NCBI GenBank assembly: GCA_041082215.1
Contig: JBDOIF010000008.1
Location: 6,036 to 70,035 of the forward strand
Length of the DNA stretch: 64,000 nucleotides
Reading direction: 5' to 3'
Origin: Anaerolineae bacterium
Lineage (GTDB): Bacteria; Chloroflexota; Anaerolineae; B4-G1; DUEL01
The notes beneath the pieces were generated by a model. The model searched no databases, was not told where the DNA came from, and worked only from the letters and a program-made list of their open reading frames with translations. Made by a program: the position numbers and the translations under genes. Positions 20,111 through 63,263 of the stretch are shown here, one piece after another. Numbering within the stretch: the first letter of the stretch is position 1; every line of letters starts with the position of its first letter.

Positions 20111-20172
20111 CCGATCTCACGTACTCCTCATCCGGGTAACAAATCTGCGGGGCGCAACTGCGCCCCGAACGA

Positions 20173-20254: not shown

Positions 20255-20266
20255 TCGCGCTGGGGT

Positions 20267-20295: not shown

Positions 20296-20305
20296 GGAGC
20301 AGCGG

Positions 20306-20495
20306 GGCGTATTTCAATTTCGGGGCGAGTGATCCTCTCGCCCGCCGGTGGATCGCGAATCCCACGAATGGCCCGAATACAGCAAATAAGAGGGGTACCT
20401 GCTCCATTCGCGGTATTCGTTTCCATTTGCGTCATTCGTGTTTCCCCAGGTCCGGCCCGGGCCAGGGACATCTCGCCCCCAGGCTGAAATACACC
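20306..20495 (+). repeat. ~190-bp palindromic CGAAT-unit element, copy 1
   Basis: Terminal inverted repeats GGCGTATTTCA.../...TGAAATACACC. 4 GAAT units at 9-bp spacing, an ~18-nt centre, then 4 ATTC units. Confidence 0.9.
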
Positions 20496-20512
20496 TGGAG
20501 CGGCGCGCTGAC

Positions 20513-20540
20513 TTGACGCATCCCCTGCGGATGGTATCAT
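20513..20540 (+). promoter_or_regulatory. candidate promoter TTGACG-16-TATCAT
   Basis: 17 nt downstream of element copy 1. Very close to the downstream start codon, so uncertain. Confidence 0.3.
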
Positions 20541-20554
20541 AGCAGGTGGAGGGA

Positions 20555-24941: not shown

Positions 24942-25733
24942 TTATGTCAACGTTTCACGTGAAACGTCCGGCTCTGTCGGTCGGGGGAGGCGGCGAAGGG
25001 CCCAGATGGCAGCGGCGGCGGCGAGGGCGAAGAGGAACACCACCCCCTCAACCGCCTCCAGAGCCCAGCCGCTCTGGGCCAATCCCACCGCCATTCCGTC
25101 CACCAGGGCGTGGCCGAGGATGGCTGCCCCCAGCCAGAGCAGGTTGTTGTGGGTGAGGGAGCGGACCACCATCAGGCTCCAGGCGATGTGCATGGTGATG
25201 GCGAAGGCGCGCTCCAGCCCTCCCAGGAGCGGCATGTACCAGGGCGTGGCCCAGAACGCCTCCACCTGCGCCTGGGCCTGTTCCAGCATCTCGCCGGAAA
25301 GCCCCAGCGCACCCAGGTCCGTCCCGCGCAGGGCCAGCATCTGGACAAAGGTGATAAGGACAGCCAGGGCGGTGAGGAGGGATTCAACCCCACCGTGTCC
25401 TGCGCCAAAGGCCACCCCCTGACCCCAGGAGCGGGCCTCCCGTCGCCAGAACCGGAGCACCAGGTAGCGGGCCACCTCCTCGCAGACGCCCGCGCTGAGG
25501 CCGGCAACAGCGGCCATCAGCGGGATGGGCCACAGCGCCACGCCACGCCCACCCGTCAGGAGGCCCAGCCCCCAGTTCAGGGGGAGATGGACCACCTGGG
25601 AAGCGACGAATGTGAGGACCCCCGCCCCGATCAACCCCCAGGTGACCCCCGGCCAGCGTCGGACCAGCAACCAGAGGGCTATGGGCAGGACAAGCATGAT
25701 GAGGATCTCCAGGCTGAGCGTTGCGTACAACAT
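24942..25733 (-). CDS. YhfC-family intramembrane metalloprotease-like protein
   Basis: Polytopic. CEEVARY (ExxxR) and paired His motifs. Start chosen at MLYATLSLEIL (ATG 25733). The last 6 codons are encoded by the palindrome. Confidence 0.6.
   Translation of the reverse strand: MLYATLSLEILIMLVLPIALWLLVRRWPGVTWGLIGAGVLTFVASQVVHLPLNWGLGLLTGGRGVALWPIPLMAAVAGLSAGVCEEVARYLVLRFWRREARSWGQGVAFGAGHGGVESLLTALAVLITFVQMLALRGTDLGALGLSGEMLEQAQAQVEAFWATPWYMPLLGGLERAFAITMHIAWSLMVVRSLTHNNLLWLGAAILGHALVDGMAVGLAQSGWALEAVEGVVFLFALAAAAAIWALRRLPRPTEPDVSRETLT
24950..24967. repeat. perfect 18-bp palindrome ACGTTTCACGTGAAACGT
   Basis: Read directly. Related to the GACGTTT heptamer family. Overlaps the 3' end of the YhfC-like CDS. 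Confidence 0.9.
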
Positions 25734-28513: not shown

Positions 28514-28702
28514 GGTGTATTTCAGTTTGGGGGCGAGATGTCCCTGGCCCGGGCCGGACCCCGGGGAACACGAATGGCGCGAATGGAAACGAATACCGCG
28601 TATGGAGCAGGTATCCCTCCTGTTCGCCGTATTCGGGCCATTCGTGGGATTCGCGATCCACCGGCGAGCCGGAAGACCACTCGCCCCGAATTGAAATACG
28701 CC
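28514..28702 (-). repeat. ~190-bp palindromic CGAAT-unit element, copy 2 (inverted orientation)
   Basis: Aligns end to end with the reverse complement of copy 1. Confidence 0.9.
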
Positions 28703-28718
28703 CCCCGCCCTCTCGTTT

Positions 28719-30125: not shown

Positions 30126-30128
30126 CCG

Positions 30129-30319
30129 GACGTATTTCAATTTCGGGGCGAGTGGTCCTCCCGCCCGCCGGTGGATCGCGAATCTCACGAATGGCCCGAA
30201 TACGGCGAACAGGAGGGATCCCTGCCCCATTCGCGGTATTCGTTCCCATTCGCGCCATTCGTGTTTCCCCGGATTCCGGCCCGGGCCAGGGACATCTCGC
30301 CCCCAGACTGAAATACACC
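30129..30319 (+). repeat. ~190-bp palindromic CGAAT-unit element, copy 3
   Basis: Full-length match to copy 1. Starts 3 nt after the upstream stop codon. Confidence 0.9.
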
Positions 30320-47092: not shown

Positions 47093-47197
47093 CGCCGCAG
47101 GCTGAAAGCCCGTGCTGCATTCTGGCCTTCCGGGCCTCGGACAAGAGTTCGGATAGGGTGGGAGAGCGACCCTCACCCCTCCCCCTATCCCTTCCCT

Positions 47198-47356
47198 TTC
47201 GCTCGCCGGTGGATCGCGAATCCCACGAATGGCCCGAATACAGCGAACAGGAGGGATACCTGCTCCATTCGCGGTATTCGTTTCCACTTGCGCCATTCGT
47301 GTTTCCCCAGGTCCGGCCCGGGCCAGGGACATCTCGCCCCCAAACTGAAATACACC
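47198..47356 (+). repeat. ~190-bp palindromic CGAAT-unit element, copy 4 (left ~30 nt missing)
   Basis: Matches copies 1/3/6 from ...CGCCGGTGGATCGCGAATCCC to ...TGAAATACACC. The left terminal repeat is absent. Confidence 0.85.
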
Positions 47357-47813: not shown

Positions 47814-48095
47814 GTGAAGTTTTGGCGTGAGCCGCTGGACCTGAAGGACATCCGTGTACCTCGTGGCGAGATCCATATGCTGGTCGAGCGTTGCAAGGGC
47901 TGCGGCTGGTGTGTGGAGTTCTGCCCCCGAGGCGTGCTCGAGGTCTCCGACGAGATCAACTCCAAAGGATACCACCCTCCCCGCGTCGTCCGGCAGGGAG
48001 CCTGCGTCGGCTGCGGGCTGTGTGAGCTGCTCTGCCCCGAGTTCGCCATCTACGTTGTAGAAGGGGAGGGGGAGGCTGTGTTGTATGAAAGCTAA
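47814..48095 (+). CDS. 2-oxoacid:ferredoxin oxidoreductase delta subunit (2x[4Fe-4S] ferredoxin)
   Basis: GTG start after AGGAGGAGG. CKGCGWCVEFCP and CVGCGLCELLCP. Confidence 0.8.
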   Translation: MKFWREPLDLKDIRVPRGEIHMLVERCKGCGWCVEFCPRGVLEVSDEINSKGYHPPRVVRQGACVGCGLCELLCPEFAIYVVEGEGEAVLYES

Positions 48096-49260
48096 AGACG
48101 GCCTTCTCTGCGGCGAGTTCTTCATGCTGGGGGACATCGCCTGCGCGGAGGGGGCGATCTGCGCCGGCTGTCGCTTCTTCGCAGGTTACCCCATCACCCC
48201 TGCCACCGAGATCGCCCAGCGGATGAGCGAACGGCTCCCCCTGGTCGGGGGGATGTACATCCAGATGGAAGACGAGATGGCCTCGATGAACGCCATACTG
48301 GGCGCTTCCTGGGCCGGGGTAAAGGCGATGACCGCCACCAGCGGCCCCGGTTTTTCTCTGATGATGGAAAACCTGGGGCTGGGCATCATGACGGAAACCC
48401 CGTGCGTGCTGGTCAACGTCCAGCGGGGCGGTCCCTCCACCGGCCTGCCCACGCTGGTGGGACAGGGGGACATGATGCAGGCCCGGTGGGGTTCCCACGG
48501 CGACTACTCTATCATCGCCCTTTCACCCTCCTCCCCCCAGGAGCTTTTCGACCTCACCATCCACGCCTTCAACCTCTCCGAAATCTACCGCCTGCCGGTC
48601 CTGGTGATGACCGACGCCGAGGTGGGACATATGACCGAGAAGGTGGTCATCCCCCCTGTGGAGGAGATCGAGCTCGTCGAGCGGCGGAAACCCACGGTCC
48701 CTCCTGAAGCATACCACCCCTACCACGTCGAGCCGGGAGAGTGGGTGCCGCCGATGGCGATCGCAGGAGAAGGATACCGCATTCACATCACCGGCCTCAC
48801 CCACGACGAGCGGGGCTACCCCGCCACCGCCGACGACAGCGCCCAGTGGCCGCTGGTGCAGCGGCTGGTTGATAAAGTCGAAAAGAACCGGGATCGGATC
48901 ATCCGGCTGGAAATGGACCGGATGGATGATGCGGAGGTGGCCGTCGTTTCCTACGGCATTGCTGCCCGCATCGCCGCCTGGCCGATCCAGATGGCCCGCG
49001 AAGAGGGCATCCGGGTGGGATTGCTGCGGCTGATCACCGTCTGGCCCTTCCCCGATGAACAGGTCCGGGATCTGGCGGGGCGGGTGCAGGGGATCGTGGT
49101 GCCGGAGATCAATATGGGGCAGATCGTCCGTGAGGTGGAGCGGTGCGCGGCCGGGCAGGCGGAGGTGATCTCCGTGCCCCACCCCGGAGGAGGCATCCAC
49201 AACCCGTTGACGGTGCTGAACGCGATCCGCAGGGCAGCAGGACGAAAGACAGAGGGATAG
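48085..49260 (+). CDS. 2-oxoacid:ferredoxin oxidoreductase alpha subunit
   Basis: GDIACAEGAICAGCRFFAGYPITPATEI, ATSGPGFSLMMENLG. Substrate (2-oxoglutarate, pyruvate or branched-chain) cannot be decided from sequence alone. Confidence 0.9.
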   Translation: MKAKDGLLCGEFFMLGDIACAEGAICAGCRFFAGYPITPATEIAQRMSERLPLVGGMYIQMEDEMASMNAILGASWAGVKAMTATSGPGFSLMMENLGLGIMTETPCVLVNVQRGGPSTGLPTLVGQGDMMQARWGSHGDYSIIALSPSSPQELFDLTIHAFNLSEIYRLPVLVMTDAEVGHMTEKVVIPPVEEIELVERRKPTVPPEAYHPYHVEPGEWVPPMAIAGEGYRIHITGLTHDERGYPATADDSAQWPLVQRLVDKVEKNRDRIIRLEMDRMDDAEVAVVSYGIAARIAAWPIQMAREEGIRVGLLRLITVWPFPDEQVRDLAGRVQGIVVPEINMGQIVREVERCAAGQAEVISVPHPGGGIHNPLTVLNAIRRAAGRKTEG

Positions 49261-49263
49261 ACG

Positions 49264-50166
49264 ATGGGCCTGAAGACAAATGGCTACCGGCTGGATAAGA
49301 CGCTGGAGACCTACGCGGAGGCGGAAGGGCTGCGGGAGGAGGTTTACGGACGCCACCCGATGGACGACCTCCTGCGCACGGAACGGCTCCCCCATATCTG
49401 GTGCTCCGGCTGCGGGCTGGGCACGGCCCTTACCTGCTTCCTGAGCGCGCTGCGCAAGTCCGGGCTGGACCTGGATAAGGTGGTGGTGGTCTCCGGGATC
49501 GGCTGCGCCGGCCGGGTGGCGGGTTACGTGCGGCTGGATTCGTTCCACACCACCCACGGCCGGGCCATCCCCTTCGCCACCGGCCTCAAGCTGGGCAATC
49601 CGGAGCTGAAAGTGGTGGTCTTTTCCGGGGATGGGGACCTGGTGACGATCGGCGGCAACCACTTCATCCACGCCGCCCGGCGCAATATGGATATGACGAT
49701 CATCTGCGTCAACAACTTCAACTACGGGATGACCGGCGGGCAGGTAGGGGCGACGACCCCCATCGGCGCCATCACCACCACCTCTCCCTACGGCAATTAC
49801 GAATACCCCTTCAACATTTCCGCGCTGGCGGCAGCCAGTGGGGCGGTGTACGTGGCCCGCTGGACGGTGCTCCATGCCCGACGGCTGGAACGCTCCATCC
49901 TGGAAGCGTTGCTCAAGCCTGGCTTCACTTTTATAGAGGTGATCTCCCCCTGCCCCACCGGCTTCGGCCGCCACAACCGGCAGCGGGAGGGGCTGGACGC
50001 CCTCCGGTACTACCGGGAACACGGCGTCATCCGCCACGGCGCCGACCTCCGGGAGACGGACATCCAGTTGGGTGGACCGCTGGTCGAAGGGAAGTTCGTG
50101 GATGTGAGCAAGCCGACCTTCCTGGAGCAGTACCATCAGCGGCTGGATCGGCTGCAGGAAAAGTAG
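49264..50166 (+). CDS. 2-oxoacid:ferredoxin oxidoreductase beta subunit (TPP-binding)
   Basis: WCSGCGLG, GIGCAGR, SGDGD...NNFNYGMTGGQ. Confidence 0.9.
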   Translation: MGLKTNGYRLDKTLETYAEAEGLREEVYGRHPMDDLLRTERLPHIWCSGCGLGTALTCFLSALRKSGLDLDKVVVVSGIGCAGRVAGYVRLDSFHTTHGRAIPFATGLKLGNPELKVVVFSGDGDLVTIGGNHFIHAARRNMDMTIICVNNFNYGMTGGQVGATTPIGAITTTSPYGNYEYPFNISALAAASGAVYVARWTVLHARRLERSILEALLKPGFTFIEVISPCPTGFGRHNRQREGLDALRYYREHGVIRHGADLRETDIQLGGPLVEGKFVDVSKPTFLEQYHQRLDRLQEK

Positions 50167-50222
50167 GACGACGCGGGGGCACGGAGACGCGGAGACGGGG
50201 AGGCGAGGAAAAGGGAGCGAGC

Positions 50223-50813
50223 ATGAACCGGCTGGAGATACGGCTTTCCGGTTTCGGCGGGCAGGGGATCATCCGCAGCGGTGAGATCATCGGCAGGGCT
50301 GCGACGCTCTACGATGGCCGCTACGCCACTTTCACTCAGAGCTACGGGCCGGAGTCGCGGGGCGGGGCAGCCGCCGCCCAGGTGGCCATCGCCGACGATC
50401 CGATGGAGCTGAGCTACCCCCATCTCATCAACCCCTCCATCCTGGTGGTGATGTCCCAGGGGGCATACAACCGGTACGTGCCCGAATTCCGCCGGGATGG
50501 TGTGCTCATTATTGACGAGAGCCTGGTGGAGCTGGACGAGAAGGCAGAAGGACTACAGGTGCTGGGGGTCCCGGCCACCCGGCTGGCGGAGGAGCTGGGC
50601 CGCCGCGTCGTGGCCAACGTGGTGATGCTCGGCTTCCTGGCTGCCGTCACCGACATCGCCTCGCCAGAGGCCCTCCGCAAAGCGGTGCTCGATTCGGTAC
50701 CCAGGGGGACGGAGGAGCTGAACGAGCGGGCGTTTGAGGTGGGGTTTGAGTACGGGAGGGAAAAAGTCAGGCGTCAAACGTCAGGCGTCAAACGTCAGGA
50801 AGATGACGGATGA
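50223..50813 (+). CDS. 2-oxoacid:ferredoxin oxidoreductase gamma subunit
   Basis: RLSGFGGQGII...SYGPESRGG. The last ~15 codons (RRQTSGVKRQEDDG) are encoded by tandem repeats. Confidence 0.85.
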   Translation: MNRLEIRLSGFGGQGIIRSGEIIGRAATLYDGRYATFTQSYGPESRGGAAAAQVAIADDPMELSYPHLINPSILVVMSQGAYNRYVPEFRRDGVLIIDESLVELDEKAEGLQVLGVPATRLAEELGRRVVANVVMLGFLAAVTDIASPEALRKAVLDSVPRGTEELNERAFEVGFEYGREKVRRQTSGVKRQEDDG

Positions 50814-50843
50814 CGAATCACGAATGACGAATGACGAATGACG
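50765..50843 (+). repeat. compound tandem repeat: (GTCAGGCGTCAAAC)x2.4 then (ATGACGR)x6
   Basis: Read directly. Spans the 3' end of the gamma subunit and the spacer to hdrA. Confidence 0.95.
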
Positions 50844-50864
50844 TTGAATCCAGAGGAAACGCAG

Positions 50865-52142
50865 ATGGGAGAGGTGCTCGTCATCGGCGGGGGGATCGCC
50901 GGCATTCAGGCCGCTCTGGACCTGGCGGAGATGGGCGTTCGAGTCCACCTGGTGGAAAGGGCGCCTTCCATCGGGGGACGGATGGCCCAGTTGGATAAGA
51001 CCTTTCCGACCAACGATTGCTCCACCTGCATCCTATCCCCCAAGATGAACGATTGCGCCCGCCATCCTAATATCATTCTCCACACCCTCTCCGAGGTAAG
51101 GGGGCTGGAGGGAACAGCCGGCCGCTTCGCCGTCTCGGTCCTCAAACACCCCCGTTATGTGGATGAGGCCCGGTGCACCGGCTGTGGGGAGTGTGCGGAG
51201 AAATGTCCTTCCAGAGTGCCCGATGCATTCGATATGGGCCTGCGCCAGCGAAAAGCGATCTACCTCTACTTCCCCCAGGCCATCCCACAGGCGATGGCCA
51301 TTGATCCGGACCACTGTATCTACCTCCAGCGAGGGAAGTGCGGGGCCTGCGCCCTGGTTTGCCAGCGAAAGGCCATCAACTTCGAGCAGACGGAACAGGT
51401 GGTGGAGCTGAGCGTGGGGGCAGTGGTGGTCGCCACCGGCTACGACTTCTTCGACCCCCGGGGGCTTTCTCAGTTCGGCTACGGGAAGTGCCCCAATGTC
51501 ATCACCGCGCTGGAATACGAGCGACTGATCAGCGCCTCCGGTCCCACGGAAGGCCGCCTGCTCCGCCTCTCCGACGGCCGGCCAGCGAAACGGATCGGCT
51601 TCATCCAGTGCGTCGGCTCGCGGGATGTGCGCCATCAGCGGTTCTGCTCGACGGTCTGCTGTATGCACTCCAGCAAGCAGGCAGTGCTGGCCGCCGAGCA
51701 CGACCCCCAGGTCGAGTCCTACATCTTCTACACCGACTTTCGGGGATCGGGCAAGGGGTTCCGGGAGTATGTGGAGCGGGCGGAACGGGAGTACGGGGTC
51801 CATTACGTCCGCAGCCGGGTAGCCCGCATTACGGAGGACGGGGACCACAACCCCATCATCCATTACGAGGACGCCGCGACCTTCCGCCCGGCCCGGCTGA
51901 CAGTGGACCTGACGGTGCTGGCGACCAGCCTGATCCCCCGGCCCACCACAGCAGCGCTGGCGCAGGTGCTGGGGATCGAGATGGACGCTTATGGCTTCGT
52001 CCAGACGGATCCCTTCTCCCCGGTGGATACGAGCCGTCCGGGGATCTTCGTCGCTGGCTGCTGCCGGGGCCCGGCCGATATCCCCGAATCGGTGATGCAG
52101 GCCAGTGCAGCAGCAGCCCGGGCAGCGCGCTTTGCGGGATAA
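50865..52142 (+). CDS. hdrA: HdrA-like FAD/FeS oxidoreductase (core form, Cys variant)
   Basis: [36 protein letters not shown], inserted ferredoxin CTGCGECAEKCP / CGACALVCQRKAI. ATG 50865 has a GAGGAA RBS. ORF-track start 50838 is inside the repeat. Confidence 0.8.
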   Translation: MGEVLVIGGGIAGIQAALDLAEMGVRVHLVERAPSIGGRMAQLDKTFPTNDCSTCILSPKMNDCARHPNIILHTLSEVRGLEGTAGRFAVSVLKHPRYVDEARCTGCGECAEKCPSRVPDAFDMGLRQRKAIYLYFPQAIPQAMAIDPDHCIYLQRGKCGACALVCQRKAINFEQTEQVVELSVGAVVVATGYDFFDPRGLSQFGYGKCPNVITALEYERLISASGPTEGRLLRLSDGRPAKRIGFIQCVGSRDVRHQRFCSTVCCMHSSKQAVLAAEHDPQVESYIFYTDFRGSGKGFREYVERAEREYGVHYVRSRVARITEDGDHNPIIHYEDAATFRPARLTVDLTVLATSLIPRPTTAALAQVLGIEMDAYGFVQTDPFSPVDTSRPGIFVAGCCRGPADIPESVMQASAAAARAARFAG

Positions 52143-52150
52143 GTGGAGAA

Positions 52151-52220
52151 AACTACGGAGGCTCAGAGGACACAGATATGAAGAAGCGGCAGATTTCTGT
52201 GCCCCTCCGTGCTTCGTGGT
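52151..52220. repeat. hairpin repeat, CCAC-GAGG-CAC family (copy C)
   Basis: AACTACGGAGGCTCAGAGGACACAGA pairs imperfectly with TCTGTGCCCCTCCGTGCTTCGTGGT. Confidence 0.6.
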
Positions 52221-52244
52221 AAACCATCAACCTGCGGAAGATCA

Positions 52245-53957
52245 ATGAGCGAAGGGCCGAGGATCGGGGTCTTTATTTGCCACTGCGGCACCAACATCGC
52301 CGGGCACGTGGATGTGGCAGCGGTGGAGGCATACGCGCGGACGCTTCCAGGGGTCGTCTTCGTCCAGCGGAACCTCTACACCTGTTCCGAGGCTGGCCTC
52401 TCTGAGATCAGGCGGGCCATCACAGAGGAGGGACTGGGACGGGTGATTGTGGCCGCCTGCACTCCCCGCACCCACGAACCCCTCTTCCGGGAGACCTGCC
52501 GGGAGGCCGGGTTGAACCCCTACCTCTTCGAATTCGTCAACATCCGCGACCAGTGCTCCTGGGTCCATATGCACGAGCCGGAACGGGCTACGGAGAAAGC
52601 GAAGGACCTGGTGCGAATGGGTGTGGCCAGGGCCTGGCTGCTGGAGCCGCTGGAGGAGCAGGAAGTGCCGGTGGAACCGGCGGCGCTGGTCGTGGGCGGG
52701 GGGATGATCGGGATGACCGCTGCCCTCAGCCTGGCGGAGCGGGGCTTCGCCGTCAAGCTGGTGGAGCGGGAGCCTCAACTGGGAGGACTCCTCCTCCGGC
52801 TGGACAGGCTCTACCCCACCCACGAGGACGCCCGATCGCTGGTGGAGAAACGGATCGCCCAGGTGCAGGCCAGCGACCGCATCGAGGTCTTCACCTCTTC
52901 CGTTGTCACCCAGATTAAAGGATTCGTCGGCAACTACGAGGTAGAAATCACCACGCTCCAGCAACCAGCAACCAGCAACCAGCAACCAGTAACCACCTCC
53001 TTCCGCGTCGGGGCCATCATCGTCGCCACCGGCGCGCGGGTCCTCCGGCCGGAGGGGATGTATGGCTACGACGGCCAGCGGGTGATCACCCAGTTCGAGC
53101 TGGAGGAGCGGCTCAGGAACGGCACGTTCGAGGCGGACCGGGTGGTGATGATCCAGTGCGTCGGTGCGCGCATCCCGGAGCGGCCTTACTGCTCCCGCAT
53201 CTGCTGTACCACCGCCATCAAGAACGCGCTCCAGATCAGGGCCCGCCGTCCCGAAGCCCAGGTCTACATCCTCTACCGGGATACGGAGACCCAGGGGACC
53301 CGCTACGAGGCTTATTACACCCAGGCCCGCGAGGCCGGCATCCAGTTTATCCGCTACAGCCTCCAGCAGCCGCCAGAGGTGACCGGCGAGCGGGTGGTAG
53401 TGTACGACGAGCTACTGGGGGCCAGGCTCGGCATCCCCTGCGACTTCGTGGTCCTCTCCACCCCGCTGGTAGCCCACCCGGATGCCCACGAGCTGGCCCG
53501 GATGCTCAAGGTGCCGGTGGACGAGCACGGCTTCTTCCTGGAAGCCCATGTAAAGCTCCGACCGCTCGATTTTGCCACCGACGGGGTCTACGTGGCCGGG
53601 ACGGCCCGCTGGCCGGCCCATCTGGAAGAGACCATCGTCCAGGCCTACGGTGCAGCGGCCCGGGCGGCGACGGTCCTTTCCAAAGACCGCGTTGTCTCCT
53701 CCGGCATCGTGGCGCGGGTGAACGAGAGGCTCTGCCGAGGGTGTGGCCGCTGTGTGGAGGTGTGCAAGTTCGGCGCGCCTTCGCTGGTGGAGAGGGCCTC
53801 CGGGGCGAGGGTGGCCCGCGTCAACCCGGTGATGTGTAAGGGGTGCGGGGCCTGTGCTGCAGCCTGTCCCACCGGGGCGATGACGGCAATGCACTTCACC
53901 GACGAGCAGATTACGGCGACGGTGCGGGCGGCGTTGGATGAATGGGTAATTGGGTGA
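52245..53957 (+). CDS. HdrA-like protein, divergent (N-terminal HdrA domain, no DCSxC motif, no inserted ferredoxin, C-terminal 2x[4Fe-4S])
   Basis: PRIGVFICHCGTNIAGHVD...NIRDQCSWVH, VVGGGMIGMTAALSLAE, CRGCGRCVEVCK / CKGCGACAAACP. Confidence 0.75.
   Translation: MSEGPRIGVFICHCGTNIAGHVDVAAVEAYARTLPGVVFVQRNLYTCSEAGLSEIRRAITEEGLGRVIVAACTPRTHEPLFRETCREAGLNPYLFEFVNIRDQCSWVHMHEPERATEKAKDLVRMGVARAWLLEPLEEQEVPVEPAALVVGGGMIGMTAALSLAERGFAVKLVEREPQLGGLLLRLDRLYPTHEDARSLVEKRIAQVQASDRIEVFTSSVVTQIKGFVGNYEVEITTLQQPATSNQQPVTTSFRVGAIIVATGARVLRPEGMYGYDGQRVITQFELEERLRNGTFEADRVVMIQCVGARIPERPYCSRICCTTAIKNALQIRARRPEAQVYILYRDTETQGTRYEAYYTQAREAGIQFIRYSLQQPPEVTGERVVVYDELLGARLGIPCDFVVLSTPLVAHPDAHELARMLKVPVDEHGFFLEAHVKLRPLDFATDGVYVAGTARWPAHLEETIVQAYGAAARAATVLSKDRVVSSGIVARVNERLCRGCGRCVEVCKFGAPSLVERASGARVARVNPVMCKGCGACAAACPTGAMTAMHFTDEQITATVRAALDEWVIG
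52958..52992 (+). repeat. intragenic heptamer array (CCAGCAA)x4 CCAGTAA
   Basis: 35 nt inside the hdrA-like CDS, translated as QQPATSNQQPVT. Confidence 0.9.
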
Positions 53958-53993
53958 CTGGGGAAGTGAGGGACCGGGTGACTGGGGGGGAAG

Positions 53994-54428
53994 ATGGAGG
54001 AGTTTCAGCCTCGGATTGTGGTTTTCGCCTGTAACTGGTGCTCCTATGCCGGGGCGGACCTGGCAGGGGTGAGCCGGATCCAGTACCCACCCACCACCCG
54101 CGTCATTCGCGTTATGTGTTCCGGGCGGGTGACCTCCGGCTTCATCCTGGAGGCCTTCCGCCGCGGAGCCGACGGGGTGCTGGTCACCGGCTGCCATCCG
54201 GGCGATTGCCACTACATCTCCGGCAACTTGAAAGCGGTCACCGTCGTCCAGCAGACCGTCCAGCTCCTCCAGCTCCTGGGCATCGAGACCGACCGGCTCC
54301 GCCTGGAGTGGGTCTCCGCCGCCGAGGGAGCCCGCTTCGCCCGCATCGTGACGGAGTTCACCGAACAGGTCCGCGCTCTGGGGCCAAGCCCCTTACGGAA
54401 TACGCAACACGCAATACGCTACAGGTGA
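53994..54428 (+). CDS. mvhD: MvhD-like (methyl-viologen-reducing hydrogenase delta subunit family) protein
   Basis: [17 protein letters not shown]...RVMCSGRV...GCHPGDCHY. The C-terminal RNTQHAIRYR is encoded by an AATACGC heptamer array (~54397-54431). Confidence 0.85.
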   Translation: MEEFQPRIVVFACNWCSYAGADLAGVSRIQYPPTTRVIRVMCSGRVTSGFILEAFRRGADGVLVTGCHPGDCHYISGNLKAVTVVQQTVQLLQLLGIETDRLRLEWVSAAEGARFARIVTEFTEQVRALGPSPLRNTQHAIRYR

Positions 54429-54434
54429 CACCCT

Positions 54435-55556
54435 ATGTCCTTCGAGGAGATCCTCCGCCAGACCCGAAGCATTCTCTGCCTGGACTGCGGAAAATGCACC
54501 GGAGCCTGCCCGATCACCCGGGTGGACCCCACCTACTCTCCCCGCGCCACCATTGAACGGGTACTGGCGGGCCGTCCGGAGGAGTTGATCAAAAACGACT
54601 ACCTCTGGGCCTGCCTGACCTGCCGCCTTTGCACCGTCCGTTGCCCCTCCGGGGTGGATTACCCTGCCTTTGTCGTCGCTGCCCGCATTGAGGCCCGCAG
54701 GGCGGGCGTGGAGGGAACCTATGCCCACAACGCGGTGATGCAGGAGCTGATGGGGCTGATGGCCCTGCCGGTAAGGCAGAACCGCACCGGTTGGGTGACG
54801 GAAGAGTTGCAGGTAGCGACCCGTGGGGACGATTTCTACTTCGTCGGCTGCCTGCCCTATTTCGACGTGGTCTTTGCCGACCTGGGGATCGCCTCCACCG
54901 ACATCGCCCGCAACACGGTCCGGCTTCTGAACCGGGTGGGGATCACGCCGGTGGTGAGCGACGATGAGCGGTGCTGCGGGGCGGACCTGCTCCTCAACGG
55001 CGATGAGGCCGGTTTCCGAAAGCTGGCCGAACTGAACATGCAGGTCATCGTCGAAAGCGGTGCCCGCCGGGTGATCTTCTCCTGCCCGGAGTGCTACAAT
55101 GCCTTCCGCAATGACTACCCCCGCGTCGTCGGCCCGCTCCCTTTTGAGGTGGTCCATCTCACCGGGCTGCTGGCCGGGCATGTGGGGGAACTGGGGCTGG
55201 GGGAGCTGGAGGAAACCGTCACCTATCAGGACCCCTGTCGGCTGGGCCGCTATCAGGGGATCTACGACGAGCCGCGCGCCCTCATCCAGGCTGTCGAGGG
55301 TGTGGAGCTGGTGGAGATGGCCAAAAGCCGCGCCCGTTCCCTCTGCTGCGGCTCCACCGGCTGGGTCCACTGCGGCCACTGTTCCCGGGAGATCCAGGCG
55401 ACCCGGCTGCGCCAGGCCCGGGCCACCGGCGCGACGCGGCTGATCACCGCCTGCCCCAAGTGCCGTATTCACTTCACCTGCGCCCTGAAAGATATGGAAG
55501 ACGAGATTTCCATCGAAGTGGAGGACCTGACAGGGCTTCTGGTGCGGGCGCTATGA
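54435..55556 (+). CDS. HdrD-like FeS/CCG-domain protein (HdrC-like + HdrB-like fusion)
   Basis: CLDCGKCTGACP and CLTCRLCTVRCP, then Cys-rich CCG motifs (RCCGAD, DPCRLGR, LCCGSTG). Confidence 0.75.
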   Translation: MSFEEILRQTRSILCLDCGKCTGACPITRVDPTYSPRATIERVLAGRPEELIKNDYLWACLTCRLCTVRCPSGVDYPAFVVAARIEARRAGVEGTYAHNAVMQELMGLMALPVRQNRTGWVTEELQVATRGDDFYFVGCLPYFDVVFADLGIASTDIARNTVRLLNRVGITPVVSDDERCCGADLLLNGDEAGFRKLAELNMQVIVESGARRVIFSCPECYNAFRNDYPRVVGPLPFEVVHLTGLLAGHVGELGLGELEETVTYQDPCRLGRYQGIYDEPRALIQAVEGVELVEMAKSRARSLCCGSTGWVHCGHCSREIQATRLRQARATGATRLITACPKCRIHFTCALKDMEDEISIEVEDLTGLLVRAL

Positions 55557-55597
55557 GGACCTGCAGCGCAGGATTTACCTTGCACAAGAGGTAGAAT

Positions 55598-56491
55598 ATG
55601 CCGGTTTTCGGAGGAATCGAGGCAGGGGGGACCAAGTTCGTCTGCGCCGTCGGTTCCGGCCCGGACGACCTGCGGGCCGTCGTCCGCTTCCCCACGACGA
55701 CGCCCGAAGAGACCCTGGGCCGGGCGGTGGCTTTTCTGAAGGATCAGGGGCCGCTCGCCGCTGTCGGTGTGGCCTCCTTTGGGCCGGTGGACCTGGACCC
55801 GGCCTCTCCCACCTACGGCTACATCACCACCACCCCCAAGCCGGGCTGGGCCTATACCGATGTGGTCGGCCCGATCCGACGGGCGCTGGGGGTAGAGGTG
55901 GGGTTCGATACGGACGTGAATGGGGCGGCACTGGCGGAGTACCGCTGGGGAGCCGCCCGGGGATTGGATACGTTCGTCTATCTGACGGTGGGCACCGGCA
56001 TCGGCGGCGGAGGGATGGTGGACGGCCGGCTGATCCACGGCCTGGTCCATCCCGAGATGGGCCACGTTTATGTGCCCCATAACCGGGAGCAGGACCCCTA
56101 CTCCGGTTGCTGCCCTTACCACGGCGACTGCCTGGAGGGGCTGGCCTCCGGCCCGGCCATCGAGGGCCGCTGGGGGCAGCCCGCCGAGACGCTCCCCCCC
56201 GACCATCCGGCCTGGGAGCTGGAGGCGGAGTACCTGGCCCTGGCCGTTGCCAATCTGGTCTGCCTTCTTTCCCCCCGGCGGGTCATCCTGGGGGGCGGGG
56301 TGATGCAGCAGGCCCATCTCTTCCCACCGATCCGGCGGAGGGTCAAGGAGCTGCTCGGAGGCTACATCCCCTCGCCGGCCATTCTGGAGCGGATCGAGGC
56401 CTATATCGTGCCGCCGGGGCTGGGGGACCGGTCCGGTGTGCTGGGGACGCTCGCGCTGGCCCGGCAGGCCGCAGAGGGAGGCCAGGGATGA
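55598..56491 (+). CDS. ROK family sugar kinase (fructokinase/Mak-like)
   Basis: [24 protein letters not shown], Zn motif HPEMGH...[11 protein letters not shown]. Confidence 0.85.
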
Positions 56492-56994
56492 GCGACGAGA
56501 TCATAGATGTCAGCACCTTCGACCCCCACTTCGCCGACGAGATCGCCGCTGAGCCGGGAGGGGAGCATATCCGGCGCTGCTTTTTCTGCTCCACCTGCAC
56601 CGCTGGCTGTCCGGTGTCCGGGGTCACGGATAAATACAACCCCCGCCGCATCGTCCATATGGCCCTTTTGGGGATGCGGGAGCAGGTTTTGAGGAGCGAT
56701 TTCGTCTGGCTCTGCGCTGTCTGCTACACCTGCTACGAGCGATGTCCGCAGGACGTGCGCATCCCGGAGCTGATGAACGCCATCCGCAACATCGCCGTGC
56801 GGGAGGGGATCGTCCCTCAGACCTTCCGGCTGCAGGTGGAGAAGCTGCGAGCAAGCGGCCGGCTGTACGAGGTGGGGGAGTACGAGAACGAGCGGCGCCT
56901 GGAACATGGCCTGCCTTCCATCTGCGACAGCCCGGAGGAGGTGCGGCGGCTGCTGGATCGGGCAGGGGTCGGAGAGAGTTGTATTTCAGTCTGA
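56488..56994 (+). CDS. hdrC: heterodisulfide reductase subunit C-like
   Basis: The ATG overlaps the ROK stop (ATGA). [12 protein letters not shown] and [12 protein letters not shown]. The last 5 codons and the stop lie inside element copy 5. Confidence 0.8.
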
Positions 56995-57167
56995 GGGCGA
57001 GATGTCCCTGGCCCGGGCCAGACCTGGGAAAACACGAATGGCGCGAATGGAGACGAATGCTGCGAATGGGGCAAGGATTCCTCCTGTTCGCGGTATTCGG
57101 GCCATTCGTGGGATTCGCGATCCACTGGCGGGCGAGAGGACCGCTCGCCCCGAAATTGGAATACGCC
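56978..57167 (-). repeat. ~190-bp palindromic CGAAT-unit element, copy 5 (inverted orientation, intra-operon)
   Basis: Full-length match to copy 2. Lies between hdrC and hdrB. Confidence 0.9.
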
Positions 57168-57185
57168 CGTCGGAGGGGAGGGGGA

Positions 57186-58079
57186 ATGAGCCGATACGCC
57201 CTGTACCTGGGCTGCACGGTGCCGGTGCGGGGGCTGAACTACGAGATGGCCGCCCGCCGGGTCTGCCAGCGGTTGGGGATCGAGCTGGTGGAGGTGGAGG
57301 GGTTTTCCTGTTGCGGCTTCCCTGTCCGCCCGCTGAGCTGGCGAGCCGGGCTGCTGATGGCCGCGCGGAACCTGGCCCTGGCTGAAGCGGAGGGGCTGGA
57401 TGTGATGGCCCTCTGCAGCGCCTGCACCGAGACCCTCACCGAGGTCGGTTATCATCTTAAAAAGGATGCGGAGCTGAGAGGCTGGGTCAACGACCGGCTG
57501 GCCGAAGTGGGGAGGACGTATAGAGGGACAGCGCGGGTGCGCCACTTCGCGCGGGTGCTCTACGAAGAGGTGGGGGTCGAGCGGCTGCGGGAAGCGGTGA
57601 CGGTGAGCCTGGAGGGGTTCAGCTTCGCCCCTCACTACGGCTGTCATTACCTCAAGCCTTCCCACCTGTACGACGGCTTCGACGACCCGGAAACCCCCCA
57701 GAGCCTGGATCGGCTCATCGAGGCCGTCGGGGCTCAAGTCGTGCGGTACGAGGACGAAGGGGATTGCTGCGGCGGAGGGATCCTGGCCTTCGACGAGGAG
57801 ACGGCGCTGCGGATGGCGAAGCGAAAGCTGGACCACGTCGCAGCGGCCGGAGCGGACGGACTGGTGCTTATCTGTCCCTTTTGTGCTATTATGTACGAAG
57901 CCAATCAGCGCCGCATCGAGGGGTTATTTCAGTCAGAATACAACCTTCCGGTGCTCTACTACCCCCAGGTCCTCGGCCTGGCGATGGGGTTCTCGCCGGA
58001 GGAGATGGGTATGCGGCTGAACCGGGTCAGGCCGATGCGGTTGATCCAGAGGCTGCGCGGACAGGCAGTGACACGGTGA
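57186..58079 (+). CDS. hdrB: heterodisulfide reductase subunit B-like (two CCG domains)
   Basis: MSRYALYLGCTVP..., FSCCGFP, CCGGGIL, CPFC. The ATG is 18 nt after element copy 5, with a GGAGGGG RBS. Confidence 0.85.
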   Translation: MSRYALYLGCTVPVRGLNYEMAARRVCQRLGIELVEVEGFSCCGFPVRPLSWRAGLLMAARNLALAEAEGLDVMALCSACTETLTEVGYHLKKDAELRGWVNDRLAEVGRTYRGTARVRHFARVLYEEVGVERLREAVTVSLEGFSFAPHYGCHYLKPSHLYDGFDDPETPQSLDRLIEAVGAQVVRYEDEGDCCGGGILAFDEETALRMAKRKLDHVAAAGADGLVLICPFCAIMYEANQRRIEGLFQSEYNLPVLYYPQVLGLAMGFSPEEMGMRLNRVRPMRLIQRLRGQAVTR

Positions 58080-58099
58080 CACGGGGACGCGGTAAAGGG
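58068..58099 (+). repeat. octamer array GTGACACG GTGACACG GGGACGCG GTAAAGGG
   Basis: Read directly. The hdrB stop TGA is inside the second unit. Confidence 0.85.
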
Positions 58100-58137
58100 T
58101 TCTGGACATCGCAGCATCATCGCAGGGAGGAGCCCAA

Positions 58138-60777
58138 ATGGCGAATGTACGACATTTCCGAGCGTCTCCGTGTCTCCAGAGAGGAGGTGGCGAATTGCCG
58201 GAAAGCGAGTTGCGTATCGGCGTCTTCGTCTGCGACTGCGGGCTGAACATCGCCGGCAGTGTGGATACGGAGGCGGTGCGGGCCTTCGCCGAGACCCTGC
58301 CGGATGTTGTGGTGGCCATCCGCAACCGCTACACCTGCTCCGACCCCGGCCAGCAGCAGATCCGGCTGGCTATCGCCGAGCACCGGCTCAACCGGGTGGT
58401 GGTCGCCTCCTGCTCCCCCCGGCTCCATGAACCCACCTTCCGCAACTGCGTCCGTCAGGCTGGCCTCAACCCCTACCTCTTCGATATGGCCAACATCCGC
58501 GAACACTGCTCCTGGGTCCATCTGGCCGACCGGGAGGCGGCAACGCGGAAGGCGCAGGACATCGTCAAGGCGGCGGTGGCCCGCGCCCGCTGGCTCTACC
58601 CCCAGGAGGAGACGGGGCTGCCCGTCACCGACGCGGCGCTGGTCATCGGCGGAGGGGTGGCGGGCATTCAGGCCGCGCTCGACCTGGCCGATGCGGGCCA
58701 CCCGGTCTACCTGGTGGAGCGGGAGCCCTCCATCGGCGGCATGATGGCCCGGCTGGATAAGACCTACCCCACGATGGACTGCAGCATATGAATCCTCGGC
58801 CCCAAGATGATGGATGTCGGTCGACATCCCAACATCGAGCTGATGACCTACAGCGAGGTCGAGGAGGTCTCCGGCTACGTGGGCAACTTCCGGGTGCGGG
58901 TGCGTCGTAAGGCCCGCTACGTAAACGAGAAGGAGTGCACCGCCTGCGGCGACTGCGTCAGGGTCTGCCCCATTGTCAAACCGGACGAGTTCCAGGCTGG
59001 CCTCTCCACCCGTCGGGCCATCTACATCCCCTTCCCCCAGGCCGTCCCCTCCGCTTACGTCATCAATATGGACGAGTGCCTGGGGGATAACCCTATCGCC
59101 TGCGGCAAGTGCCTGGAGGCATGCGATAAAAAGTGCATTGACTTCGATATGCGGGACGAGATCGTGGAGCTGTCGGTGGGGGCCATCATCGTCGCCACCG
59201 GGATGGAGGTCTACGACCCCGCGCCGCTGGACGAGTACGGCTACACCAGTTTCCCCAACGTCATCACCAGCCTGGAGTTCGAGCGGCTGATCTCCGCTGG
59301 CGGCCCCACCGAGGGCCACTTCATCCGCCCCTCGGACCGGAAGCGCCCCCGCCGCATCGGCTTCGTCCAGTGCGTCGGCTCCCGCACCGCCCGCACCCCC
59401 ACCAACCCCGAAGGCAGCCGGGGCAACCCCTACTGTTCCAACATCTGCTGCATGAACACGATCAAGGACAGCCTCCTCCTCAAGGACCACTACCCCGATA
59501 CCGAGATCACCGTCTTCTATATGGACATCCGTGCCTTTGGCAAGGGGTTCGAGGACCTCTATATGCGCTCCCGCGAGGCGGGGGTCCGCTATATCCGCGG
59601 CCTCCCCGGCGAGGTGGAGGAGGACCCGGAGACGGGCAACCTGCGGGTCTACGTGGAGAACACGACGACAGGAACGCTGGAGACCTATGACTTCGACCTG
59701 CTGGTGCTCTCGGTGGGGGCGGTTCCCCGTCGGGAGACGGAGCTGATACGGCAGCTTCTGAACCTCTCCCGCACCGGCGACGGCTTCCTGATGGAGGCCC
59801 ATCCCAAACTGAAGCCGGTGGATACGCCGACGAGGGGGGTCTATATCGCTGGATGCGCCGAGTCCCCCAAAGACATCAAGGATTCGGTCACCCAGGCCAG
59901 CGCCGCCGCCGCCCGGGCGGAGATCCTCCTCAGCTCCCCCTCTGTCCCGGTGGAGGCGATCACCGCCGTCGTTGATCCCGATCTGTGCAGGAAGTGCGGA
60001 CGGTGCGCCGCGGTCTGCCCCTTCTCCGCCATTCGCTGGCAGAAAGGGGAGGTGGCTCAGGTTGTCAGCGCTGCCTGTGCCGGGTGTGGCACCTGCGCTG
60101 CCGAGTGTCCCTTCGGCGCCATCAGCCAGCGCCACTTCACCGACCAGCAGATCTACGCGATGATTGACGCGATCCTGGAGGAGGACCCGCTGGAGAAGAT
60201 CATCGCCTTCGCCTGCAACTGGTGCTCCTACGCCGGGGCCGACACGGCGGGCGTCTCCCGCTTCCAGTACCCGCCCAACGTCCGCATCATCCGCACCATG
60301 TGCTCCGGCCGGGTGAACCCCGACTTCGTCTGGTACGCCTTCCAGAAAGGAGCGCCGGTGGTGCTGGTCTCCGGCTGTCATTATGCCGACTGCCACTATA
60401 TCAACGCCAACCGGAACACCGTCCGCCGGGTGGACGCGCTGTGGGAGGGGCTGGAGAAGGCAGGCATCCGCCCTGAACGGCTACAACTGGATTGGTGCAG
60501 CGCCGCCGAGGGGCAGAAGTGGGCTAGAATCATCCAGGAAATCGAGGGGCTGCGGGCCACTGTGACCGCCGGGGAGGTGGAGCGGACGCGAGAGGCGCTG
60601 AAAGGGGAGAAGCCCCCCACCTCCAGCAAGGTATGGCGGCTTAAGGAGCCGACGGAGGCCACCATGCGGTGTATGCGCTGTGGCCACGAGTGGACCGTTT
60701 CGTTTGACCCCACGGCCGACCAGGAGCGGATGTGCACCGCCTGCCGCTCCAACAGCGTGCGGGTGGTCCTGTTGTAG
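58138..60777 (+). CDS. hdrA: HdrA-MvhD fusion with C-terminal zinc ribbon; in-frame TGA 58789-58791 predicted to encode selenocysteine
   Basis: ORF-track pieces 58138-58791 and 58807-60777 share one frame. The protein is colinear with the Cys paralog across the TGA (TMDCSI-U-ILGPKM vs TNDCSTCILSPKM). An MvhD module ([17 protein letters not shown]...GCHYADCHY) and CMRCG...CTACRS follow. [11 protein letters not shown] before ATG 58138. Confidence 0.75.
58812..58829 (+). promoter_or_regulatory. candidate bacterial SECIS apical hairpin GGAUGUC-GGUC-GACAUCC
   Basis: 7-bp stem and GGUC tetraloop at +31..+34 from the U of UGA. Flanking GAUG/CAUC and CUC/GAG can extend the helix. Confidence 0.5.
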
Positions 60778-63062: not shown

Positions 63063-63073
63063 ACCTCAGGATG

Positions 63074-63263
63074 GGCGCATTTCAATTTCGGAGCGATTGG
63101 TCCTCTCGCCCGCCGGTGGATCGCGAATCCCACGAATGGCCCGAATACAGCGAATAGGAGAGATACCTGCTCCATTCGCTGTATTCGTTTCCATTCGCGC
63201 CATTCGTGTTTCCCCAGGTCCGGCCCGGGCCAGGGACATCTCGCCCCCAGACCGAAATACACC
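63074..63263 (+). repeat. ~190-bp palindromic CGAAT-unit element, copy 6
   Basis: Full-length match. All 8 GAAT/ATTC units are intact. Confidence 0.9.

Follow-up and report, generated by a model that had tools for sequence, protein, structure and literature searches.

Is the TGA at positions 58789-58791 of this stretch of DNA the end of a gene, or is it a selenocysteine (Sec) codon inside a longer one? In the list of open reading frames, two ORFs on the forward strand, 58138-58791 and 58807-60777, lie in the same frame, and an earlier note on this DNA regarded them as a single gene that the ORF track splits at a TGA. Translation of 58138-60777 bears this out: the product has 879 residues and a single internal stop, the TGA in question, before it terminates at TAG. 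From comparison of sequences, we put the probability at roughly 90% that this interval is one selenoprotein gene, in which UGA would be decoded as selenocysteine within a fusion of HdrA and MvhD. We refer to the gene as hdrA2(Sec)-mvhD, and to the whole 64-kb stretch that was analysed as the window. The features discussed below are collected in Table 1.

Table 1. Features at and around hdrA2(Sec)-mvhD, in coordinates of the window.
Feature	Position	Strand	Basis or remark
HdrA-like paralogue with Cys, 434 aa, confined to the flavoprotein core	50838..52142	+	TGC 51027-51029 homologous to the UGA
hdrC, 168 aa, two CxxCxxCxxxCP motifs	56488..56994	+	translation
hdrB, 297 aa, two CCG domains	57186..58079	+	TIGR03288 at residues 152-438 of the long ORF; PF02754
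hdrA2(Sec)-mvhD coding sequence (predicted)	58138..60777	+	879 codons, one of them a UGA that is read through; ends at TAG
UGA codon 218, predicted selenocysteine, motif C215-S-I-U218	58789..58791	+	same column as Cys197 of M. thermolithotrophicus HdrA
Possible lower SECIS stems	58796-58800/58839-58843 and 58806-58809/58833-58836	+	in the window's minimum-energy fold only; weakly supported
SECIS apical hairpin, 7-bp stem GGAUGUC/GACAUCC, loop GGUC at 58819-58822	58812..58829	+	-9.4 kcal/mol; candidate SelB site by comparison
MvhD (FlpD) domain fused to HdrA, residues 688-802	60199..60543	+	PF02662 E 1.3e-46; PDB MvhD chains E about 1e-40
C-terminal CxxC...CxxC tail (C845, C848, C866, C869), putative Zn ribbon	60670..60744	+	read from sequence

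Results

Identity of the read-through protein

We place the start of the gene at ATG 58138, which has a Shine-Dalgarno sequence, GGGAGGAG, at 58125-58132. An alternative start at TTG 58195, with GAGGAGG at 58181-58187, is possible; homology to HdrA starts at residue 24-26 of the read-through protein. Both sides of the TGA carry a coding signature, with GC3 values of 0.92 and 0.88.

The read-through protein matches the solved HdrA 5ODC chain A over residues 24-680 with an E-value of 7.3e-243. When U is modelled as C, the protein scores 1197.9 bits against the NCBIfam HdrA2 profile NF040770, whose curated cut-off is 1100 bits, and its residues 26-811 span profile positions 1-773 of 777. Pfam detects Pyr_redox/FAD and Fer4 domains, followed by FlpD, and both HdrA and MvhD chains in the PDB match. 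That is, the protein has the architecture of HdrA2, in which an HdrA flavoprotein core with ferredoxin domains is joined to MvhD; the fusion and the length of 879 aa had both been claimed earlier, and both stand. The Pfam scan of the read-through protein gives no match to the Cys4 tail, after which comes a conserved CRSNSVR motif. The tail is kept in a Chloroflexota and Desulfobacterales sub-clade, and is missing in other phyla and in the Cys orthologues.

The UGA codon and its homologues

According to the earlier note, the TGA replaces the second Cys of a conserved DCSxC motif. Alignment with homologues and with the solved HdrA agrees: Cys stands at the homologous column in 5ODC_A, in four orthologues and in the paralogue within the window. 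The canonical position of Sec in archaeal HdrA is at about residue 200 (PMC4989117), and in M. maripaludis HdrA it is Sec197 (PMC13518236).

The alignment of homologues around DCSxC/U, which had been proposed as a check, finds either TGA or Cys at this codon. Among 80 orthologous loci, from species-level genomes of many phyla, the codon is TGA in 76, in each case with the same hairpin downstream; these loci span Chloroflexota, Desulfobacterales, Eisenbacteria, Marinimicrobia, KSB1, Zixibacteria, Ignavibacteria and others. Seven second, paralogous copies likewise carry TGA at this codon, and TGA and hairpin are found together in 84 sequences.

We also scanned the six frames of the window for in-frame TGAs flanked on either side by a coding signature. 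Four candidates resulted, of which only that at 58789 is genuine: those at 17452 and 13399 are antisense artefacts, and that at 54426 is the ordinary stop of mvhD, which by chance is in frame with the following gene.

A hairpin downstream of the UGA

The hairpin starts 20 nt past the TGA, and its loop occupies +31..+34 if numbering starts with the U of UGA as +1; the perfect 7-bp stem, the GGUC loop, their position and the spacing are all as first described. Perfect hairpins with a 7-bp stem and a 4-nt loop number only 12 per strand in the window, and in just three, on the + strand, does the loop start with G[G/U]. For any given TGA, such a hairpin would be found by chance within the permitted 22 nt downstream with a probability of about 0.001.

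We compared the hairpin with the bSECIS consensus model of Zhang and Gladyshev, as given in PMC13188914. The model allows a loop of 3-9 nt and an upper stem of 4-16 bp, which here measure 4 nt and 7 bp; it asks for a G at loop position 1 or 2, with G or U as the usual next base, and GGUC is invariant in the 84 sequences. The spacing of 27 nt (58792-58818) lies within its bounds, and the energy of the 18-nt hairpin lies below its limit of -7.5 kcal/mol. Rfam, searched over the whole window at gathering thresholds, returns two tRNAs only; searched over 251 nt around the TGA at E-values up to 10, it returns only a chance snoRNA match, and no family fits the hairpin.

A fold of the region had been suggested as a further check. 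The 7-bp hairpin forms, and the stretch from UGA to +60 folds at -20.1 kcal/mol; by itself, the folding energy is only mildly significant, being no more than modestly unusual for the 76-nt stretch (z = -1.86). The additional pairings that had been described below the hairpin, GAUG/CAUC and an outer stem, form in the window and are not conserved: across the orthologues only 78% (58806-58809/58833-58836) and 62% (58796-58800/58839-58843) of cells are paired. RNAalifold omits both from its consensus fold, and we therefore reject them as a conserved feature of the SECIS.

For the predicted SECIS, the decisive evidence is comparative rather than energetic. In the 84 sequences 99.8% of cells in the apical hairpin are paired, and it is the sole helix that RNAalifold predicts. 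Its pair 38-45 is UA in 63 sequences, UG in 12 and CG in 9, and is never unpaired; GTC..CGA gives way to GCC..CGG in 9 of 9 cases, as a compensatory pair. The codons at +8 to +12 past the UGA show zero synonymous variation (GAT, GTC or GCC, GGT, CAT), with the exception of CGA/CGG (n = 84), and the codons flanking the hairpin show 0.9-1.9 bits of it. The four Cys orthologues keep the peptide MDVGRHP by means of other codons (GTG; GGG, GGA or GGC; CGC, CGT or CGG), and there the hairpin is absent. Wherever the hairpin occurs the codon is TGA, never one for Cys. Between the UGA and the following ATG stand five codons for ILGPK; the amino acids are invariant while the synonymous sites vary, from which we conclude that the stretch past the UGA is translated.

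Decoding of the UGA

The comparative evidence suggests that UGA codon 218 would be read as selenocysteine during translation: SelB carrying Sec-tRNA(Sec) would bind the 18-nt hairpin, whose GGUC loop would offer the same G and U by which E. coli SelB recognises the fdhF element. The fdhF SECIS sequence used for comparison occurs with 100% identity within the fdhF gene of more than 5400 E. coli genomes, and the GGUC loop is indeed shared. As here, the fdhF element lies in the coding frame just 3' of the UGA, with an identical GGUC (G22 G23 U24 C25), of which G23 and U24 are contacts of SelB (PMC8659212). The two elements differ in their stems, whose sequences are unrelated: that of fdhF has 5+2 bp and a bulged U17, which E. 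coli SelB needs, whereas here all 7 bp are paired and no base is bulged. In fdhF the loop lies at +22..+25, so that the loop here is 9 nt farther from the UGA.

Pfam scans of the approximately 43 predicted proteins of the window find no selA, selB or selD, and ARAGORN finds no tRNA-Sec in it, only tRNA-Leu and tRNA-Phe. At one orthologous locus, tRNA-Sec, selA, selB and nifS-selD adjoin the orthologue, and at another selB does. SelB, tRNA-Sec and Sec-containing formate dehydrogenases have been reported from Anaerolineales and other Chloroflexi (PMC4959059, PMC5389517).

The same SECIS and SelB might instead deliver cysteine, by way of a tRNA(Sec)-like tRNA(Cys) or, at low selenium, of a thiophosphate-derived Cys-tRNA(Sec). 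SelB accepts some tRNA(Sec)-like tRNAs that carry Cys, and the content of the window fits delivery of either amino acid. The tRNA(Sec)-like tRNAs as a class are reported to be widespread in bacteria, and unusual 8/4 tRNA(Sec) species to occur in Chloroflexi (PMC5389517). Nevertheless, the UGA stands at the canonical Sec site of HdrA, selA and selD, which serve to make Sec, adjoin the gene in relatives, and a Cys codon, as used by four orthologues, would be a simpler route to the same end; we regard decoding as Cys as very improbable. More improbable still is a true stop, which would leave either a pseudogene or a split gene with a product of 217 aa and another of 656 aa that is initiated at ATG 58807. 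Gene callers do treat the TGA in this way, and the public protein collection holds close relatives only as C-terminal fragments of 654-664 aa, which is the mis-annotation by automated callers that had been anticipated. However, a stop would not account for a TGA conserved in 84 sequences over many phyla, for purifying selection on both halves, or for the ILGPK codons described above; no Shine-Dalgarno motif is seen before 58807, and a split at the TGA would cut the FAD-binding domain mid-way.

The least probable readings are an error of sequencing or assembly, by which TGC or TGT came to be read as TGA, and a reassignment of UGA to Trp or Gly throughout the genome. A single-base difference would suffice for the former, and nothing specific speaks in its favour. 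Against it, 76 genomes that were assembled independently share this TGA, and the hairpin occurs only where the TGA does. Against reassignment, 17 of the window's 44 predicted genes end in TGA, and the TGA at 58789-58791 is alone among the in-frame ones there in having a coding context. Decoding of the UGA as selenocysteine is accordingly the reading that we retain, at the probability given above.

Gene neighbourhood and the Cys paralogue

The ATG of hdrC overlaps the stop of a ROK gene, and hdrC lies directly upstream of hdrB, as it does at seven other loci. As a model for hdrB, the long ORF 56742-58079 is over-extended; over its first 148 codons, which run into a repeat element, it does not look like coding sequence. 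The locus thus contains what an HdrABC complex calls for, namely an adjacent hdrB with CCG domains and hdrC with two 4Fe-4S motifs, in an order conserved in close relatives. The gene context suggests that HdrA2(Sec) most likely joins HdrC and HdrB in a soluble, flavin-based electron-bifurcating HdrABC-like complex, whose partners would be ferredoxin and a disulfide; neither CoM nor CoB is expected to occur in this bacterium. By homology, U218 may pair with C215, as C215-x-x-U218, in a redox couple next to the bifurcating FAD. In Methanococcus HdrA the Cys-Sec pair sits between FAD and an Fe-S cluster, and a selenylsulfide relay through Sec197 has been proposed between the two (PMC13518236).

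In the Cys paralogue the motif reads LDKTFPTNDCSTCILSPKM, and no hairpin is found downstream of its TGC (-4.2 kcal/mol). The paralogue is 47.6% identical to HdrA2(Sec) over 420 aa and, as had been stated, colinear with it across the stop, with Cys at the UGA column. At 48% identity, and with its N-terminal, ferredoxin and MvhD domains missing, the paralogue is not isofunctional with HdrA2(Sec), and we reject the idea of the 434-aa protein as a selenium-free back-up isoform.

Comparison with known systems

The Sec-HdrA family, the position of its Sec and HdrA-MvhD fusions are already known, and the present gene is not a new kind of system. Over residues 24-680 it has the same domain order as the Sec-HdrA of Methanococcales (Sec197 in M. 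maripaludis; Cys197 in 5ODC chain A), a group in which either Sec or Cys occupies the same DCSxC/U column as here. In those archaea, however, the hdrA SECIS is of the archaeal type and lies outside the coding region, whereas the hairpin here is bacterial and in frame; their MvhD/VhuD is a separate subunit and itself a selenoprotein, whereas here it is fused and without a UGA. Also unlike the Methanococcales case, there are no hydrogenase genes nearby, and the host is a non-methanogenic Anaerolineae-type bacterium.

Bacterial Sec-HdrA has been described from Syntrophobacter fumaroxidans, Desulfobacterium autotrophicum HRM2, Moorella, Carboxydothermus and others; its genes combine an in-frame UGA with a bSECIS and occur in multi-copy hdrA/mvhD/hdrBC clusters, and a single genome can encode both a Sec and a Cys paralogue (PMC1794560, PMC2702500). 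The novelty that the earlier note saw in a Sec/Cys pair was therefore overstated, and the range that it gave for Sec-HdrA, Methanococcales and Deltaproteobacteria, is correct but too narrow, since Firmicutes have it too. The published bacterial examples are from Deltaproteobacteria and Firmicutes, and the present one is from Chloroflexota; in the literature searched, we found no paper naming a Sec-HdrA in that phylum. It differs from them also in belonging to the HdrA2 type, to which MvhD is fused, in its additional Cys4 tail, and in its linkage to a 2-oxoacid:ferredoxin oxidoreductase operon.

In architecture the gene is like HdrA2 of the Methanosarcina and Archaeoglobus type (NF040770), which shows the same fusion; hdrB and hdrC are adjacent here. 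Where the UGA stands in our gene, HdrA2 of these archaea has Cys. The characterised M. acetivorans HdrA2B2C2 reportedly takes F420H2 as its donor. HdrA-MvhD fusions are also noted in PMC2702500.

Discussion

The hdrA2(Sec)-mvhD gene lies in a conserved cluster with 2-oxoacid:ferredoxin oxidoreductase (POR). The arrangement POR(alpha, beta, gamma)/1-2 HdrA-like/MvhD/HdrCB-like/(HdrC, HdrB)/HdrA2(Sec)-MvhD recurs in more than 10 mostly uncultured phyla, with the 18-nt SECIS conserved almost base for base, and we found no description of a POR-linked Hdr cluster in the literature searched. It is conceivable, but on balance unlikely, that this is an undescribed cross-phylum module with the present gene as its selenium-dependent flavoprotein. 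If so, it would imply the horizontal spread of a ready-made Sec-dependent unit, in which the oxidation of 2-oxoacids is coupled to a disulfide/thiol couple by electron bifurcation.

The practical value of the finding is a correction of the annotation of hdrA2(Sec) and of dozens of its orthologues. Annotation as fragments hides the FAD-binding half, and the predicted selenium dependence, of an energy-metabolism enzyme that is abundant in Anaerolineae and many uncultured anaerobes. The invariant 18-nt SECIS, GGAUGYCGGUCGRCAUCC, offers a simple and specific marker for Sec-hdrA2 genes in metagenomes. The orthologues would also add many bacterial examples to the question of what role a Cys-x-x-Sec pair plays near a bifurcating flavin (PMC13518236). 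For the organism itself, the Sec call, if correct, implies a Sec-decoding trait and a requirement for selenium.

Reading frame and protein identity

The best-supported reading of positions 58138-60777 is a single selenoprotein gene, hdrA2(Sec)-mvhD. The mechanical ORFs 58138-58791 (217 aa) and 58807-60777 (656 aa) lie in one common frame, and the translation across both has 879 residues, a single internal stop (TGA, 58789-58791) and the terminator TAG. The coordinates given in the earlier note were all correct when the TGA, the frame, the hairpin and its loop were rechecked on the sequence. Translation could start at ATG 58138 or TTG 58195, each preceded by a good Shine-Dalgarno sequence, and HdrA homology begins at residue 24-26 of the read-through protein.

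For homology searches, the stop was replaced by Cys. The read-through protein then matches the solved HdrA of Methanothermococcus thermolithotrophicus (5ODC_A) over residues 24-680 (E 7.3e-243) and MvhD chains over residues 682-807 (about 1e-40). It scores 1197.9 bits with the NCBIfam HdrA2 model NF040770 (cut-off 1100), and Pfam identifies a FAD/pyridine-nucleotide-disulfide fold, two ferredoxin modules and FlpD (MvhD) at 688-802. The last 37 residues contain CxxC...CxxC, then CRSNSVR; among the orthologous loci compared, this tail is kept in the sub-clade of Chloroflexota and Desulfobacterales, and is absent elsewhere. In the protein collection, every match of at least 81% identity is a 654-664 aa fragment starting after the UGA, just the mis-annotation that had been anticipated.

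In the alignment with 5ODC_A, the UGA falls on residue 197, which is the second Cys of DCSIC, and therefore the motif here is C215-S-I-U218. At the matching motif the Cys paralogue, an HdrA-like protein encoded in the same cluster, reads LDKTFPTNDCSTCILSPKM, with TGC at 51027. Archaeal Sec-HdrA has a single Sec at ‘canonical position ~200’ (PMC4989117), and in M. maripaludis Hdr-Vhu-Fwd, whose cryo-EM structure dates from 2026, Sec197 and a Cys probably form a selenylsulfide that lies between FAD and cluster A3 (PMC13518236).

Conservation of the UGA and the hairpin

With each GTDB species represented by one genome, the scan yielded 80 orthologous loci, whose labels are Anaerolineae, Chloroflexia, Caldilineae, Thermoflexia, Dehalococcoidia, Desulfobacterales, Eisenbacteria, Fidelibacterota/Marinimicrobia, KSB1, Zhuqueibacterota, Zixibacteria, Ignavibacteria and others. 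At the orthologous codon, 76 of the 80 have TGA, and TGC or TGT stands in the remaining four (L061, L065, L069, L075; all Dehalococcoidia or Chloroflexota).

The 18-nt hairpin hardly varies across 84 aligned TGA-type sequences: the RNAalifold consensus is exactly the 7-bp helix, with no other helix, and 99.8% of hairpin cells are paired. One pair varies (U-A in 63, U-G in 12, C-G in 9) and is broken in none; in 9/9 cases of the C-G state, a Val-to-Ala change (GUC to GCC) is coupled with CGA to CGG. Synonymous entropy is zero at codons +8 GAT, +9 GTC, +10 GGT and +12 CAT, against 0.9-1.9 bits in the flanks, and codon +11 is only ever CGA or CGG. The identical peptide, MDVGRHP, is found in the four Cys orthologues, which spell it with GTG, GGG/GGA/GGC, CGC/CGT/CGG and CAC/CAT; no hairpin forms in them.

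Termination followed by re-initiation at 58807 is excluded by the five codons between the UGA and that next ATG (I-L-G-P-K): they are invariant as amino acids while their third positions are free to vary, and therefore the stretch past the UGA is translated. Genome-wide reassignment of UGA is likewise excluded, since TGA terminates 17 of the 44 predicted genes in the window, where no second in-frame TGA occurs in a coding context.

Next to the UGA (58786-58792), the preceding Ile codon is ATA in 58 of the 84 sequences, and A then U invariably follow the UGA (Ile, ATH); this may reflect a preferred recoding context, or merely conserved Ile residues. At 54426-54437, the TGA that ends the separate mvhD gene shares its frame with the gene that follows (ATG 54435), which makes the pair resemble a read-through candidate; the spacing to the next gene varies among relatives, and we take this TGA as an ordinary stop.

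Comparison with bacterial SECIS elements

The hairpin, GGAUGUC-GGUC-GACAUCC, begins 20 nt past the TGA, with its loop at +31 to +34 from the U of the UGA. Perfect hairpins with 7 bp and a 4-nt loop are rare, at 12 per strand in the window, and of those on the + strand 3 begin their loop with G[G/U]; such a hairpin would fall by chance within the SECIS-compatible range behind a given TGA with a probability of about 0.001. By folding energy alone, the 76-nt stretch stands out only modestly (z -1.86).

In the published model of bacterial SECIS elements, a stem of 4-16 bp carries a loop of 3-9 nt with G as its first or second base (mostly G[G/U]); the loop lies 16-37 nt from the UGA, and the free energy does not exceed -7.5 kcal/mol (PMC13188914). 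The window hairpin agrees in all four respects (4-nt loop on a 7-bp stem; GG; 27 nt; -9.4 kcal/mol). Together with the UGA/Cys alignment, the prevalence of TGA and the conserved hairpin, this agreement supports the Sec-containing HdrA-MvhD fusion that the earlier note had proposed.

The fdhF SECIS sequence used for comparison is 100% identical within fdhF in >5400 E. coli genomes. Its apical loop, G22 G23 U24 C25, is the GGUC of the window hairpin; this numbering agrees with the published one, in which G23 and U24 are the SelB contacts and U17 is bulged (PMC8659212). The window hairpin, however, has no bulge, and its loop lies 9 nt farther from the UGA.

Gene neighbourhood and selenocysteine machinery

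Features of the window and of locus L078 (Ignavibacteriaceae)
Feature	Position	Strand	Remarks
Sensor histidine kinase	8555-14581	+	2008 aa; PAS, ~eight GAF, then HisKA and HATPase
Palindrome	16770-16787		ACGTTTGACGTCAAACGT
Palindrome	24950-24967		ACGTTTCACGTGAAACGT
Repeat copy	20305-20482	-
Repeat copy	28528-28703	+
Repeat copy	30127-30307	-
Repeat copy	47195-47342	-
Repeat copy	56990-57170	+
Repeat copy	63070-63251	-
POR alpha, beta, gamma	48085-50813
HdrA-like	50838-52142	+	434 aa; Cys
HdrA-like	52209-53957		582 aa
MvhD	53994-54428
HdrCB-like	54435-55556		373 aa
ROK kinase	55598-56491
hdrC	56488-56994		ATG overlaps ROK stop (ATGA)
hdrB	57186-58079
hdrA2(Sec)-mvhD	58138-60777	+
Predicted SECIS hairpin	58812-58829	+
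L078 sel cluster	14964-20603	-	complete set
L078 cysteine-desulfurase-like/SelD fusion	14964-17168	-	734 aa
L078 selB	17161-19110	-
L078 selA	19744-20595 and 19107-19811	-	two overlapping ORFs
L078 tRNA-Sec	20510-20603	-

The gene order in the table comes from our re-annotation of the neighbourhood. The mechanical ORFs 56742-58079 and 56107-56994 mislead here: hdrB starts only at 57186, the 148 codons ahead of it crossing a repeat element, and hdrC starts at 56488. The window's full order (48085-60777) is repeated in the close relatives L003-L005. The cluster consists of POR (2-oxoacid:ferredoxin oxidoreductase), HdrA-like protein(s), MvhD, HdrCB-like, sometimes HdrC and HdrB, then HdrA2(Sec)-MvhD, and occurs in L003-L005, L009, L019, L021, L023, L025, L039, L051, L067, L068, L078 and others; the reduced order POR, HdrA-like, MvhD, HdrCB-like, HdrA2(Sec) is found in most of the 80 loci, across many phyla. 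We found no description of this cluster in the searched literature.

The Cys paralogue is 47.6% identical to Sec-HdrA2 and comprises the flavoprotein core only. In seven loci (L051:3738, L059:1253, L067:2725, L068:3439, L071:2819, L078:5439, L080:2521), the cluster's first HdrA-like gene is longer (~960-1050 residues after the stop) and has a TGA at the same motif, DCxI-U. These genes share the hairpin GGAUGYCGGUCGRCAUCC (KSB1, Zixibacteria, Ignavibacteria, Eisenbacteria and similar loci); the window's clade has Cys at this position. Since several non-Chloroflexota phyla thus carry the UGA in both genes, the Sec/Cys pair, initially thought noteworthy, is one lineage's state and not a special pairing.

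No tRNA-Sec was found in the 64-kb window, nor SelA, SelB or SelD among its ~43 predicted proteins (Pfam scan). In L078, Sec-hdrA2-hdrC-hdrB is immediately followed by tRNA-Sec, selA, selB and a nifS-selD fusion, the split selA suggesting a frameshift or assembly error; in L029, a deltaproteobacterial MAG, selB adjoins the hdrA2 orthologue. Both arrangements support Sec decoding indirectly. Anaerolineales single-cell genomes encode Sec-specific elongation factors and Sec-containing formate dehydrogenases (PMC4959059), and 8/4-type tRNA-Sec is present in Chloroflexi (PMC5389517).

The window also contains six copies of an interspersed palindromic repeat of ~185 nt, all intergenic and 87-89% identical, with inverted ends (GTATTTCAGTCTGGGGGCGAG ... 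CTCGCCCCGAAATTGAAATAC). Each unit folds as one long hairpin (-100 kcal/mol, z -5.3). The gap from hdrC to hdrB, only 6-115 nt in close relatives, here has a copy inserted in it. Rfam gives no match to the repeat, and none of the 80 related loci contains a copy; it resembles a MITE- or REP-like element. The two near-identical perfect palindromes may be operator sites of a dimeric regulator.

Interpretation

As for mechanism, we infer that SelB with Sec-tRNA(Sec) would dock on the hairpin when the UGA arrives at the ribosome. In the enzyme, U218 and C215 would form a redox pair beside the bifurcating FAD, and the protein would partner HdrB and HdrC in a soluble electron-bifurcating complex.

Few prokaryotic selenoprotein families are commoner than HdrA, which is reported from Deltaproteobacteria, Firmicutes and methanogens (PMC1794560; PMC13188914). 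Every Hdr group of Desulfobacterium autotrophicum includes both Sec and Cys paralogues, and HdrA-MvhD fusions have been noted for Methanosarcina and Archaeoglobus (PMC2702500). We found no paper in the searched literature that names Sec-HdrA in Chloroflexota; its presence there is a taxonomic extension, and no new kind of system.
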